In this document: positions 5,117-40,370 of the stretch, one piece after another
Numbering within the stretch: position 1 is the stretch's first letter
How the letters are laid out: each line of letters begins with the position of its first letter
Source: Shigella phage vB_SboD_StarDew
Direction: 5' to 3' (one strand)
Sequence record: NC_073082
DNA: 44,715 nucleotides
Notes under the pieces: model-generated
What the model was told of the DNA's origin: nothing
Database searches by the model: none
What the model saw: the letters and a program-made list of their open reading frames with translations, nothing else
Program-made: the position numbers and the translations under genes

Positions 5117-5881
5117 TTAGCGCGGAATACCGCAAATCTCGTTGAGAGTTTTCACATCCAGCGCCACCGCCGTGGATTTTGGCTTGTCCGGGTAAGGGAT
5201 GAATTGCTCAACTTCAGGCCATGCCTTAATCAGCTTCTTGTCAGTATTGTGCAGGTCCAGCACACCGGTAACGGTCAACTTGAACGCGTCATACTTAGCC
5301 CGCAATTCGCGGCGGGCCTTATCGTTACGGTCCAGGCGCTTGCAGAAATCGTGGTCCGCAGGGTAGTCTATGCGACCGCGTGGCTTATAGATCGGCAGCG
5401 ATTTTCCGTCCTCGTCCACTTCACACACCGAAGCCAGCATAACTTCCTCGAACCCCGGTACGATATCGCCGAGATCGGGAGATAGCTTATTCATGTATTT
5501 ATATTCCCAGTATCCTCGATGTACTCGGTATTGGTATCCGTCGCCGCTCAATGACAAGGTGCGAACGTTTCCGCCTGCGTTTATTTCGAAAGTGGCGTCG
5601 TAAACGCTGCCGATACCTTTTGGGCGGTCGGTGTTATAACTATACGTCGCCTTGTTGGTGTATACACAGACGCCGTACATCTGCGACGGGTCATCGCCGA
5701 TTGCTTCAATGCGCTCGAGTAGCTTGGCGAACGTGCGAATGCCTTCCGGCATACAGTCCAGCGTAATGGCATAAGCCAGGTCGCGCGAGTCCATCATGAT
5801 TTGTTTGGCTTCTGTCGCGATTTCGTGGTCGCGCAGGATGTTAGCCAGGATCTGATTTTTAATGTCTTTAGTAAGTCTCAT
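5117..5881 (-). CDS. hypothetical protein (254 aa), reverse-strand accessory gene (moron) inside head module
   Basis: Long ORF with GAGGA RBS 8 nt upstream of ATG at 5881; own promoter at 5911-5940; ORF track 5117..5926 trimmed to first ATG with RBS. No family recognised. Confidence 0.6.
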   Translation of the reverse strand: MRLTKDIKNQILANILRDHEIATEAKQIMMDSRDLAYAITLDCMPEGIRTFAKLLERIEAIGDDPSQMYGVCVYTNKATYSYNTDRPKGIGSVYDATFEINAGGNVRTLSLSGDGYQYRVHRGYWEYKYMNKLSPDLGDIVPGFEEVMLASVCEVDEDGKSLPIYKPRGRIDYPADHDFCKRLDRNDKARRELRAKYDAFKLTVTGVLDLHNTDKKLIKAWPEVEQFIPYPDKPKSTAVALDVKTLNEICGIPR

Positions 5882-5910
5882 TTTTGTGTCCTCGTTGTTG
5901 GTGTGCAACC

Positions 5911-5940
5911 AATATAATGCAACCAATACTCGGATTGCAA
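5911..5940 (-). promoter_or_regulatory. candidate promoter (minus strand): -35 TTGCAA, 18-bp spacer containing ATTGGTTGCA, -10 TATATT
   Basis: Read on reverse complement; same architecture recurs at 27247-27275 and 40008-40036. Confidence 0.45.
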
Positions 5941-11188: not shown

Positions 11189-11502
11189 TTGAGGCGGCGC
11201 GACGCTTTTATGGCCCGCCGCCACCCTCCGAAGATTTAGCCGCAAGTTTATGGGGTGCGACCCCCGAAGATGTTTGCCCGCCGGTTGCACTATGGCCCGA
11301 CAACGCGAAGGTAGTCGCAGTCTTCACAGATTGCTCCACGCAATGGCGCACCGGATTCGGTGGCGCATACGGCATCGACTACGGCGTACTGGAATGGCTA
11401 TTTAAGATGCACGGCATCGAAAACGCGCAACGTGCGTTTAAAGATATCAAGCTAATGGAACGCGTTGCGCTGGATGAAATGGCGCGGCAGAACCACGCAT
11501 AA
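10826..11502 (+). CDS. tail assembly chaperone GT-like fusion made by -1 programmed frameshift at A_AAA_AAC (11179-11185)
   Basis: -1 frame is open from 11179 to stop at 11500-11502 with no in-frame start codon until 11407; slippery heptamer sits just before the G stop codon. Confidence 0.6.
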
Positions 11503-11504
11503 CG

Positions 11505-11817
11505 GAGCGGGACAGGCGGGACGTCCCGTTTTGTCCCGCACCTCTAAAACTGCATATTTACTCACCACAATTGCATAAATTAAAAGCGGGACAGGGGTGC
11601 TGTCCCGCTTTGTCCCTCCCTTAAAAGTGAATAGCTATGCGGTTTTTCTGCATAAAACAAACGGGACAAAAAGCGGGACTGAATGGGGCGGGACAAAGCG
11701 GGACAGCACCCCTGTCCCCGCCAGTGCTGCCGCGGTTTTTAGCCGATCGGGACAGGCGGGACAAAGCCCAGTCTTTCAGACTAGACGGGGGGTCTGGCAC
11801 CCCCTCGTCTGAGACTG
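11505..11817. repeat. iteron/hairpin array A: multiple GCGGGACA repeats, palindromes, ACTGCATAA motifs and a 49-nt imperfect hairpin
   Basis: Read directly; about 90 bp plus the 49-nt hairpin nearly identical to 39660-39848. Confidence 0.85.
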
Positions 11818-11885
11818 AATAAGGTTTGTTTTAAATTCGCTGATACAATGACCGACGGCAACTGCATAAAAAGGGGGACTGCATA

Positions 11886-36009: not shown

Positions 36010-36525
36010 TTAATCTTCCAGTTCGAAATAAGTTTCGACGATTTCTTTAAGATCTTTGTGGAAGTCTTCGACGTCTTCATCTTCCAGCTTGGCGATTGAT
36101 TTGATCTCGAACGATTCCAGCAGGTCGTCAAATTCGTCGTTCGCGTCGTCGTCGTCACCACCGGCAATAATAGCGGCATATTGTTTGATTTCGTCGCGCA
36201 TCTCCGCCAGCGGATCGGCATCTTTCTTGCCTTTGACTTTCGCCGGGGCTTTTTTAGATTTAGCCGGTTTTTCGTCTTCGGCATCATCGTCGTCATCTTC
36301 TACGACTTCTTTTTTGGCCTTACCTTTCGCCGGGGCTTTTTTAGATTTAGCCGGTTTTTCGTCTTCGGCGTCATCGTCGTCATCTTCGACAACTTCTTTT
36401 TTCACCTTAGACGGCTTCTTGTCTTCCTGCTTACCAACGGCAGCGCCAACGGTTTCATAATGCTTAGCGATGGTTTCCAGTGCTACTACGCCGCGAGTAA
36501 TCAGGTTTACGATTTGTTCAAACAT
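36010..36525 (-). CDS. first gene of leftward early operon: protein with tandem Lys/Asp/Glu-rich repeats and acidic C-terminus
   Basis: GGAGA RBS before ATG at 36525; 26-aa unit KKEVVEDDDDDAEDEKPAKSKKAPAK repeated twice; track ORF 36010..36753 trimmed. Confidence 0.55.
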   Translation of the reverse strand: MFEQIVNLITRGVVALETIAKHYETVGAAVGKQEDKKPSKVKKEVVEDDDDDAEDEKPAKSKKAPAKGKAKKEVVEDDDDDAEDEKPAKSKKAPAKVKGKKDADPLAEMRDEIKQYAAIIAGGDDDDANDEFDDLLESFEIKSIAKLEDEDVEDFHKDLKEIVETYFELED

Positions 36526-36721
36526 GGTGTATCTCCGATTGGTTAAGTTTAGGTGTCGGCAGTTAACTTCGTCGGTGGCCTTAACATATTGCCAGGTTAC
36601 GCGTTCTCCCGTTCGGGTAGTGGACCTGGTTATATAATCACGGTTGGGAATCCTGACACTTCGATCCGGCCCCTGCGTTGCCCCTCTCCAGTTTGCGTCC
36701 TGCATCCTGTCGACGGAGTGA

Positions 36722-36759: not shown

Positions 36760-36795
36760 AAAAAAAAAAAGCGCCGAGGCAAAATGCACCGGCGC
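36760..36795 (-). terminator. strong minus-strand rho-independent terminator (GCGCCG-13 nt loop-CGGCGC followed by 11 U)
   Basis: Read directly: plus strand has A11 then the hairpin, so the U-tract follows the stem only on the minus-strand transcript. Confidence 0.65.
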
Positions 36796-36824
36796 TAACC
36801 AATAAGAGACAATGAGACGGGAGT

Positions 36825-36853
36825 ATTATTACACGCGTGCGCGCCCGTTTCAA
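36825..36853 (-). promoter_or_regulatory. candidate minus-strand promoter: -35 TTGAAA, 17-bp spacer, extended -10 TGtAATAAT; about 60 nt upstream of the terminator
   Basis: Read on reverse complement; back-to-back with the rightward promoter. Confidence 0.4.
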
Positions 36854-36865
36854 TATCCAAAGGAT

Positions 36866-36894
36866 TTGACACCTTACGGTTTTAGGTGTAGTTT
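36866..36894 (+). promoter_or_regulatory. candidate rightward promoter: perfect -35 TTGACA, 17-bp spacer, weak -10 TAGTTT
   Basis: Read directly; 32 nt upstream of ATG at 36926. Confidence 0.4.
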
Positions 36895-36925
36895 CGTTGG
36901 TCATTAACCAACTGAGGGCAGTGCG

Positions 36926-37255
36926 ATGAATGTAAATGACGCAATCGAAATGTTAACGAAGACTGTTAGCAGTGAAACACGCCGGTCATGGGCTTATACC
37001 GATGCCGTGGGGGCGGTGTTATTTGAAATCGAACGACTGCGCAGTGTCGAAAAAGAATTACGCGCCAGGCTGGAATTGCTCAACGGCACGGCAGCAAGCA
37101 AGCTGCAAAAGCACAATGAAGAAATGGAAGAATACAAAAAACAGGTTATCCGTTTGCGCGCCGAGGGCAAATCCTGGGCGATGATTGCCGAGTTGACCGG
37201 AATTAATCAGAGCACAGTGCGCTCCTGGGTACGCAATAATAAAACTTCTAAGTAA
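36926..37255 (+). CDS. HTH DNA-binding protein (candidate transcriptional regulator)
   Basis: C-terminal helix-turn-helix-like segment GKSWAMIAELTGINQSTVRSWV; GAGGG RBS; first rightward gene. Confidence 0.55.
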   Translation: MNVNDAIEMLTKTVSSETRRSWAYTDAVGAVLFEIERLRSVEKELRARLELLNGTAASKLQKHNEEMEEYKKQVIRLRAEGKSWAMIAELTGINQSTVRSWVRNNKTSK

Positions 37256-39659: not shown

Positions 39660-39848
39660 AATAGTTATGCAGTTTTATTGCATAAAGTAAGCGGGACAAA
39701 AAGCGGGACAGACCAGGGGCGGGACAAAGCGGGACAGCACCCCTGTCCCGCCCCGGATGACGCGGCCTGGCGAGGAGCGGGACAGCGGGACAGCACCCCA
39801 GTCTTTCAGACTAGACGGGGGGTCTGGCACCCCCCTCGTCTGAGACTG
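39660..39848. repeat. iteron/hairpin array B, near-duplicate of array A
   Basis: Shares GGGACAAAAAGCGGGAC, GGGGCGGGACAAAGCGGGACAGCACCCCTGTCCC and the 49-50 nt hairpin with array A. Confidence 0.85.
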
Positions 39849-40007
39849 CATAAAATCCAGGATTGCATAACGCACGGCAACATGATGCAAATTGCGGTCG
39901 TCGATGATCTAGGCAACCAATGCGAGTTGCAGAATGGTGGGTGAGAAATGCAGTTTGCAGTCACAGCAGATAGCGATCAACTTTTTCATACGCGTGATTA
40001 ATATTGG

Positions 40008-40036
40008 TTGCACCCACCCTGGCACCCTGCTATATT
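40008..40036 (+). promoter_or_regulatory. candidate promoter: -35 TTGCAC within ATTGGTTGCA, 17-bp spacer, -10 TATATT, conserved leader
   Basis: Leader TATATTGGTTGCACACCAACA...GAGGAC nearly identical to the reverse complement of 5890-5916. Confidence 0.45.
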
Positions 40037-40064
40037 GGTTGCACACCAACATGAGGACTGAACA

Positions 40065-40370
40065 ATGAAAGCATTAATCTGGAATTACACAATGGCGGTG
40101 GCGAAGCTGTATGAAGCGAAGCACACAGACGGCAACGCAGACGACGCTCGCCAGGTTGTCATCCTGGCCCGGCAGGGAATCATGGACGCGTTCGACGATA
40201 TGTTTGCCAGCCTGGACGAACTGGAACCGCTGCGCGTGGCAATCTGCGAATATGCGAGGGCATTTGCCCGTGAGCGCCTGGCGTATCGCTTCGGGATCGG
40301 AGAGACGGCAGCGACAAACGTCGCCCGGATTAAAGCCCAGCGCGAGCTATTCGCCCAGCTTGCGAAATAA
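40065..40370 (+). CDS. hypothetical protein (101 aa)
   Basis: GAGGA RBS; first gene downstream of promoter at 40008-40036. Confidence 0.5.
   Translation: MKALIWNYTMAVAKLYEAKHTDGNADDARQVVILARQGIMDAFDDMFASLDELEPLRVAICEYARAFARERLAYRFGIGETAATNVARIKAQRELFAQLAK

Follow-up and report, generated by a model that had tools for sequence, protein, structure and literature searches.

A candidate small-RNA gene in the divergent early control region of Shigella phage vB_SboD_StarDew and other Dhillonviruses

The genome of Shigella phage vB_SboD_StarDew (sequence record NC_073082; the window referred to below is the whole stretch analyzed, 44,715 nucleotides) carries at positions 36760–36853 a leftward promoter closely followed by an intrinsic terminator, a cassette that we interpret as a candidate gene for a small RNA of about 57 nucleotides (nt). 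The cassette lies in a divergent control region of ~400 bp that separates the leftward and rightward early operons. The rightward operon begins with a gene coding for a 109-aa helix-turn-helix (HTH) protein, which is followed by the gene for a 754-aa primase/helicase; the leftward operon begins with a gene coding for a 171-aa acidic repeat protein, beyond which are genes for a PD-(D/E)XK nuclease, a DNA polymerase, and other functions. The region around the cassette matches 191 records and is 95–97% identical to many Dhillonvirus genomes, including those of SO-1, vB_EcoS-UDS3lw, JL1, and BASEL phages. The Dhillonviruses (HK578/SO-1-like phages) are virulent siphophages of E. coli.

The cassette promoter, P1, is on the minus strand and has a -35 hexamer TTGAAA, a GC-rich spacer of 17 bp, an extended -10 TG (36833–36832), and a -10 hexamer AATAAT, as reported in a first-pass annotation of this DNA made from the sequence and its open reading frames (ORFs). 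Promoter-likeness by itself is not above chance, as the window contains three sites that match at 10/12 positions or more, compared with 3.4 in shuffled sequences; P1 is the only one of the three with an extended -10 TG. The transcript is predicted to begin at G36818 and to end in the U run at about 36760–36765, which fits the leftward RNA of ~57 nt that the first-pass annotation had put forward. Folding of a 66-nt stretch of the RNA leaves the first 24 nt unpaired and gives one GC-rich hairpin at -16.9 kcal/mol (z = -3.3; 0/200 shuffles fold as well). This hairpin, from A36796 to U36770, and the run of 11 T residues that ends it form the strong intrinsic terminator recognized earlier, and the T run is by far the longest among ten hairpin-plus-T sites in the window. 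A U-rich single-stranded stretch, UCUCUUAUU, is present upstream of the hairpin. A bidirectional terminator was considered and rejected, as the hairpin on the plus strand is followed by TAACCAATAAG, with no T run.

A second leftward promoter, P2, begins 10 nt beyond the U tract of the terminator, where it had been proposed previously, and its spacer contains the invariant motif GCAACCAAT (36737–36729). The rightward early promoter, PR, is arranged back-to-back with P1, and a palindrome at the PR start site is likely an operator. All three promoters are annotated in the GenBank record of HK578, and the terminator is annotated in the WF5505 and CS16 records; none of the three records has a label for an RNA gene.

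The cassette is non-coding, because the discriminator between the -10 hexamer and the predicted start contains indels and no ORF begins downstream of +1, in agreement with the earlier statement that no ORF lies between promoter and terminator. Four candidate ORFs were rejected: two on the minus strand (48 and 25 aa) start upstream of the predicted start and cross the discriminator with its 1–4-nt indels, and two on the plus strand (31 and 81 aa) extend across the cassette and are broken by indels. The RNA gene is wholly intergenic, and no plus-strand promoter reads through it. A search of the whole window with the Rfam 15 covariance models gave no matches at gathering thresholds; the best sub-threshold matches to the cassette (RsaE, an L20 leader, and others) have E values of at least 0.46 and are driven by the terminator. 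A tRNA search of the window gave none matching the cassette.

Table 1. Features of the divergent control region and flanking genes. Positions are those of the window; variable columns are those of the alignment of Dhillonvirus loci.
Feature	Position	Strand	Variable columns	Basis or remarks
P1, promoter of the predicted RNA	36853-36825	-		10/12 matches plus TG
P1 -35 hexamer	36853-36848	-	1/6	TTGAAA
P1 -10 hexamer	36830-36825	-	0/6	AATAAT
Discriminator, -10 to predicted start	36819-36824	-	8/8	1-4-nt indels
Predicted ~57-nt small RNA	36762-36818	-		5' end G36818 from -10 position and conservation boundary
Single-stranded 5' arm GUCUCAUUGUCUCUUAUUGGUUAG, proposed seed	36795-36818	-	1/22 (+1 to +22)	Unpaired in minimum free energy and centroid structures
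Intrinsic terminator	36760-36796	-		7+3-bp hairpin 36796-36770, 11 U 36770-36760; fold, covariation
P2, leftward operon promoter	36750-36722	-		TTGACT-17-TAATAT
Downstream of P2			16/22	
PR, rightward early promoter	36866-36894	+		TTGACA-17-TAGTTT
PR spacer			15/17	
PR leader			31/34	
Palindrome at PR start site, candidate operator	36896-36912			GTTGGT-cattA-ACCAAC; right half overlaps candidate target 1
Candidate target 1, HTH gene	36904-36927	+		Short 5' untranslated region, Shine-Dalgarno, AU of start codon
Candidate target 2, acidic protein gene	36546-36530	-		UUAACCAAUCGGAGAUA, including Shine-Dalgarno; pattern search
109-aa HTH protein gene, first in rightward operon	36926-37255	+		Pfam HTH_23, HTH_28, Sigma70_r4_2
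171-aa acidic repeat protein gene, first in leftward operon	36010-36525	-		ATG at 36525; no Pfam family

The cassette is present in all of the 52 Dhillonvirus loci examined, which were drawn from GenBank phages, IMG/VR, and metagenomes and represent 31 distinct cassettes (individual loci are referred to by L numbers where needed). Conservation switches on at the predicted start, G36818, because every column of the discriminator varies and only a single column of the arm does (Table 1). The PR hexamers have 0–1 variable columns, and the P1 spacer, too, stands out for its conservation (mean per-site difference, 0.023). The hairpin shows covariation, with two compensatory double changes and no broken pairs among the ten predicted: in the lineage that has diverged furthest (flanking genes ~78% identical) basal pairs change from G-C to U-A and from G-C to C-G, and one more pair becomes a wobble. 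The U tract varies in length from 8 to 14 across the relatives. The P2 -35 hexamer is either TTGACT or TTGACA, and its -10 variants (TAATAT, TATCAT, and TATTAT) all keep A2 and T6. In one metagenomic phage, with a primase N-terminus that is 56% identical and a PR region that has been replaced, the cassette is still near-identical. The 52/52 presence, the restriction of variation to positions at which a promoter, RNA arm, and terminator would be indifferent to change, and the two compensatory stem changes place the cassette beyond chance, and the overall pattern of variation–near-invariant hexamers and arm, a free discriminator, and a covarying hairpin–fits that of an RNA gene.

Two types of larger rearrangement are also seen near the cassette. 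In L019 (HK578), L020 (CHD5UKE2), and L070 (from a metagenome) unrelated sequence takes the place of the PR leader and of the N-terminal portion of the HTH protein, with the mosaic junction between the PR -35 and the PR -10/leader, and the block from P1 through the RNA and terminator to P2 is almost identical. Within the P2 5' untranslated region (UTR), a 148-nt segment (36558–36705, minus strand) is present in about two-thirds of the loci and is cleanly missing from L002, L008, L010, L013, L017, and L020–L022; it contains no ORF consistent with the strand, and its structure does not exceed that of shuffles. A structured 5' UTR downstream of P2 was rejected, as the 190-nt leader is not stabilized relative to shuffled sequences (z = +0.94).

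The cassette was found on Dhillonvirus contigs only in a 16-mer scan of IMG/VR; 14 other matches have no promoter or terminator context, and we take them to be unrelated chance matches. No extended match (~20 nt or more) to either strand is present in 5,426 complete E. coli genomes, and no extended match was found in plasmids. The Guernseyvirinae phages phiEap-2, 37P2, and SE1 have the same gene order and primase/helicases with 43–48% identity, and their divergent regions are ~145–220 bp in length; none of the three was found to contain a promoter-terminator unit. These relatives have a single leftward promoter (clear in phiEap-2 and SE1) that is P2-like (e.g. TATTAT followed by ...TCAC), and P2 appears to be its positional counterpart. 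Because the gene order is shared and these relatives have one leftward promoter and no cassette, we read the cassette as having been inserted between PR and a leftward promoter of ancestral origin.

We propose that the cassette is a free-standing, Dhillonvirus-specific small-RNA gene whose product base-pairs with translation-initiation regions, and we assign this reading as a whole a probability of about one half. That a short transcript is made from P1 is highly probable; that this RNA is a base-pairing regulator acting on initiation regions has roughly even odds; and the two flanking leaders are tentatively proposed as its true targets. The conservation from +1, the invariant arm, the compensatory stem changes, and the lack of the cassette in syntenic relatives favor the small non-coding RNA, one of two alternatives offered by the first-pass annotation. 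In the proposed mechanism, host sigma-70 RNA polymerase would initiate at P1, with G36818 as the predicted +1, and would stop at the strong intrinsic terminator to yield an RNA of ~57 nt in which an unstructured 24-nt 5' arm is followed by a GC-rich hairpin and then by a long U tail. The arm GUCUCAUUGUCUCUUAUUGGUUAG would then pair in trans with translation-initiation regions, the likeliest being those of the HTH regulator gene (36904–36927, plus strand) and the acidic protein gene (36546–36530, minus strand), and the accumulating RNA would lower the translation of both first genes by this pairing. The sequence elements, the way they are conserved, the covariation of the hairpin, the restriction to the genus, and the complementarity are demonstrated; that the RNA is produced, where exactly it begins and ends, whether Hfq takes part, which mRNAs are targeted, and in which direction they are regulated we infer.

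That the arm complements the ribosome-binding region of each neighboring first gene is a new observation, and was missed in the first pass. In an ungapped scan of both strands the PR leader ranks third of ~89,000 positions, with 20/24 pairs, 14 of which are Watson-Crick, and the match takes in nearly the entire predicted 26-nt 5' UTR along with the Shine-Dalgarno sequence and the A and U of the AUG. The predicted duplex of the arm with the PR leader has an energy of -22.7 kcal/mol, and none of 300 composition shuffles is as good; in WF5505 and Bas85 (L017/L022) it contains an uninterrupted run of 17 base pairs (18 when counted by hand), with an energy of -24.1 kcal/mol, and the remaining PR leader variants range from -14 to -19 kcal/mol. 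In a structure-aware cofold with the PR leader the ddG is -14.8 kcal/mol, and 1/100 arm shuffles is as good. The second target, which is in the mRNA sense immediately ahead of its gene, pairs with the arm through 9+7 bp in 21 of the 23 other loci (HK578 among them) at ~-18.2 kcal/mol, and more weakly (~-13 kcal/mol) in the divergent L013/L021 lineage; its distance to the AUG is fixed with or without the 148-nt leader segment. Two blocks, AACCAA and a GGAGA-type Shine-Dalgarno, are common to the arm and both targets and are spaced 2 nt apart in each. The first-pass annotation had described part of the RNA as an echo of ATTGGTTGC; the two do share ATTGGTT, but this part of the RNA is more aptly viewed as a complement of UAACCAAU, present in the leaders of two mRNAs.

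More generally, the arm pairs at -18 kcal/mol or below with 13 of 58 annotated leaders versus 12 of 250 internal windows, and shuffled arms reach this level with 3.7 of the 58 leaders (0/300 reach 13; the reversed arm, 1/58), figures in which the sequences are related and part of the match is generic Shine-Dalgarno. The top non-self duplexes in the genome, at a site in the tape measure gene and at GCGGGACA iteron clusters, contain many G-U wobbles and were not treated as targets; they are discounted because GAGACA is not enriched and their energies are inflated by large loops. At the DNA level, the arm (36795–36818) and the first target (36904–36927) form a direct repeat. On its plus strand the RNA gene resembles a leader (...AACCAAUAAGAGACAAUGAGAC), which suggests that the RNA gene may have arisen as a duplicate of the PR leader that was later transcribed antisense. 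A more speculative extension, which we consider rather doubtful, is that a 57-nt 'anti-RBS' (ribosome-binding site) RNA born by this duplication co-represses translation of the first genes of both early operons, and possibly of other genes with initiation regions of GAGAC type, as an RNA timer that replaces a protein repressor in the early-to-late switch.

Several observations weigh against the small-RNA proposal. The cofold significance for the P2 leader is modest (ddG -12.5 kcal/mol, with 10/100 arm shuffles as good), and with only five distinct RNA variants the covariation between RNA and targets is uninformative. The 1-nt deletion within the arm in L013, L021, and L067 is uncompensated in both targets, with pairing weakened to ~-13 to -16 kcal/mol. 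The replaced PR leader of HK578 and CHD5UKE2 keeps only a 6–7-nt GAGACA/GGGACAA match, and L070 too has a replaced PR leader; because the arm is unchanged in all three, the PR leader cannot be the sole constraint on it. The AACCAA block of both targets resembles the palindrome half-site and the genome-wide GCAACCAAT motif, and ACCAAC...GGAGAC is found in the leftward leader of relatives that lack the RNA, such that the complementarity could be in part a by-product of DNA-level sites and ordinary Shine-Dalgarno sequences. We found no literature on Dhillonvirus transcriptomes, small RNAs, promoters, or terminators; the SECphi18 paper reportedly used RNA sequencing for T7 infection and for plasmid expression of the phage protein Gp77, not for SECphi18 infection. 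The RNA gene is unannotated, and we found no prior description of it.

An alternative that we regard as unlikely, though the strongest of those considered, is that the RNA is real and acts mainly on the host, either by pairing with host mRNAs, by sponging a host small RNA, or as a decoy for a host defence system, with the pairing to phage leaders incidental to an arm that resembles an anti-Shine-Dalgarno sequence. The arm is invariant even where the PR leader is replaced and pairs with many initiation regions rather than one, and the strong promoter of constitutive type suggests very early expression, all of which would be consistent with host targets. Phage and prophage small RNAs with host targets are documented (e.g. 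bioRxiv 10.1101/2024.10.31.621285, PMC12803456). Against this, no match of ~20 nt or longer is present in the 5,426 E. coli genomes or in plasmids, a search in which short seeds are below reach, and the two best phage sites are those of the flanking first genes with a shared spacing of the pairing blocks, which is hard to call incidental.

It is rather improbable that the first 24 positions of the transcribed region are instead a cluster of DNA sites, composed of a TTGGT-N5-ACCAAC/GCAACCAAT half-site and GAGAC repeats, at which a regulator controls P1 or uses P1 as a sink or insulator, with the transcript a by-product and the terminator a shield for P2. The ATTGGTT of the arm is common to a motif with 15 exact copies in the window, most of them in intergenic, promoter-like places such as the P2 spacer, the palindrome at the PR start site has the same half-site, an HTH protein is encoded next door, and the P1 spacer is conserved to an unusual degree, as noted above. 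However, the invariant GC of the genome-wide motif is not matched by the three UAACCAA(U/C) copies, the entire 24-nt arm is invariant and not just the half-site, and GAGACA is not enriched in the genome. Moreover, the copy in the P2 leader keeps its distance to the start codon, and not to the promoter, across the 148-nt indel, and the substitutions within the target AACCAA block (A to G in L012, and C to U in L013/L021) are compatible with wobble pairing in an RNA duplex but would break a DNA half-site.

The least probable alternative builds on the second of the two raised in the first pass; here, P1 and the terminator constitute a promoter-proximal attenuator, with a phage factor letting P1 transcripts into the leftward operon in the manner of lambda Q/pR'-tR' or N/nut and the arm acting as a recognition or pause element. 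Its geometry does resemble that of lambda pR'-6S RNA-tR', a direct repeat GUCUC-N3-GUCUC is present in the initial transcribed region, and 7 nt before the hairpin is what we take to be a boxA-like element, GUCUCUUA, with 6/8 matches to lambda CGCUCUUA; a second terminator past the first leftward gene (36001–35982) also makes some control by read-through conceivable. We nonetheless favor a small-RNA gene over such a gate, because P2 is conserved past the terminator with consensus-preserving -10 variants and provides the downstream operon with its own promoter, the Guernseyvirinae relatives manage without the cassette and with one P2-like leftward promoter, and no antiterminator was found, either as a Q/N-type or other Pfam family in nine small early proteins (ten were scanned, and many small ORFs belong to no family) or in the annotation of the 97%-identical genome of UDS3lw. 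There is also no clear -10-like pause element on reading the sequence. We take the resemblances to lambda pR'-tR' and N/nut to be superficial, since the hairpin is a terminator of the canonical type and does not resemble a boxB stem-loop.

By analogy, the architecture of the proposed gene is that of an enterobacterial Hfq-type small RNA, and its logic would be closest to that of P22 sar, P1 c4, and P4 CI. The Hfq-type RNAs, including the 53-nt DicF of the Qin prophage, share with it a sigma-70 promoter of their own, a length of 50–100 nt, a conserved single-stranded seed, a U-rich stretch, a Rho-independent terminator with a long U tail, and predicted pairing at the ribosome-binding sites of genes that they do not overlap. 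Unlike these host and prophage RNAs, the RNA described here is from a virulent siphophage and its predicted targets are the two divergent early operons of the phage itself; it has no sequence or Rfam relationship to DicF or the others.

P22 sar and lambda OOP are similarly phage RNAs of ~57–77 nt defined by a promoter and an intrinsic terminator, and sar blocks the ribosome-binding site of the regulatory gene ant. Both are cis-antisense RNAs that overlap their target genes, in contrast to the StarDew RNA gene, which is overlapped by no gene or predicted transcript, and for which pairing would be in trans and imperfect. The P1/P7 c4 and P4 CI RNAs, which act in trans, are also short and complement a copy of a repeated sequence located close by in the leader of an mRNA, but these are processed from the transcript that they regulate and act in lysogenic immunity, whereas here the RNA has its own promoter in a virulent phage and the proposed effect is on the translation of two divergent operons. 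The arrangement in lambda pR'-6S RNA-tR' is alike in having a strong promoter, a strong terminator close behind it, and a short constitutive transcript, and a boxA-like element is present in the RNA; the StarDew cassette differs from lambda Q and N/nut in the conserved promoter past the terminator, in its absence from relatives, and in that we found neither a homologue of Q or N nor a boxB or a clear pause element.

Dhillonviruses are common coliphages, and the genus includes members of the BASEL collection as well as SECphi4 and SECphi18, which are used in studies of anti-phage defence; 153 Dhillonvirus records in the phage collection match. If the proposal is correct, every Dhillonvirus genome misses an annotated regulator at the center of its early control region. 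To our knowledge, functional small RNAs of virulent phages are still few, and a small RNA acting on the bidirectional early operons of its own phage would provide a simple and genetically tractable model of RNA-based lytic timing. Such an RNA would also have to be considered when Dhillonviruses are engineered or used as probes of defence systems.

The 9-mer ATTGGTTGC/GCAACCAAT is abundant beyond the cassette, with 15 exact sites in the window (5905, 5919, 22015, 25356, 27255, 27272, 30214, 33902, 36729, 39596, 39631, 39913, 40003, 40034, and 40568) compared with ~0.3 expected by our own calculation (4^9, both strands). The sites are mostly intergenic and promoter-like, and are often arranged as direct-repeat pairs 12–35 bp apart or as an inverted pair (25345/25356). 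A transcription regulator of the phage, possibly the 109-aa HTH protein, probably binds the 9-mer. The palindromic arrangement TTGGT-N5-ACCAAC is at the start of three leaders, those of the HTH gene (36896–36912), a gene at 40065 (40034–40050, plus strand), and the Nmad5 gene (5897–5913, minus strand), where it looks like a common operator; the leaders of the latter two genes share the longer ATATTGGTTGCACACCAAC...GAGGAC...ATG. Nmad5 (nucleotide modification associated domain 5; Pfam E = 7e-59) is encoded at 5120–5881 on the minus strand, inside the plus-strand structural module, and the divergent promoter region of this gene contains two GCAACCAAT motifs.

Two related segments of ~170–330 bp, at 11500–11830 and 39680–39850 (plus strand), contain clusters of GCGGGACA iterons and TGCATAA repeats, together with a long inverted repeat (cagtctttcagactagacgggggg...cccccctcgtctgagactg), and one of them adjoins the 3' side of the primase/helicase gene. 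CGGGACA occurs 18 times on the plus strand compared with 2.7 expected, and several of the best duplexes rich in wobble pairs that the 5' end of the RNA forms are with these segments. We regard the segments as candidate origins of replication; they recall the pair of iteron regions, ori and crr, in P4.

The products of both flanking first genes have names in GenBank that look like propagated mis-annotations. The 109-aa HTH protein is variously named a transposase, a resolvase, or a 'DNA recombination nuclease inhibitor gamma', and the acidic protein is named a 'prohead core protein'; Pfam backs only the HTH domain of the former and no family for the latter. Directly past the first leftward gene is a second intrinsic-terminator-like hairpin (36001–35982, minus strand; GGCCCGC...GCGGGCC followed by TATTTTT), and because of this hairpin the expression of the remaining leftward operon may involve partial termination or additional promoters.

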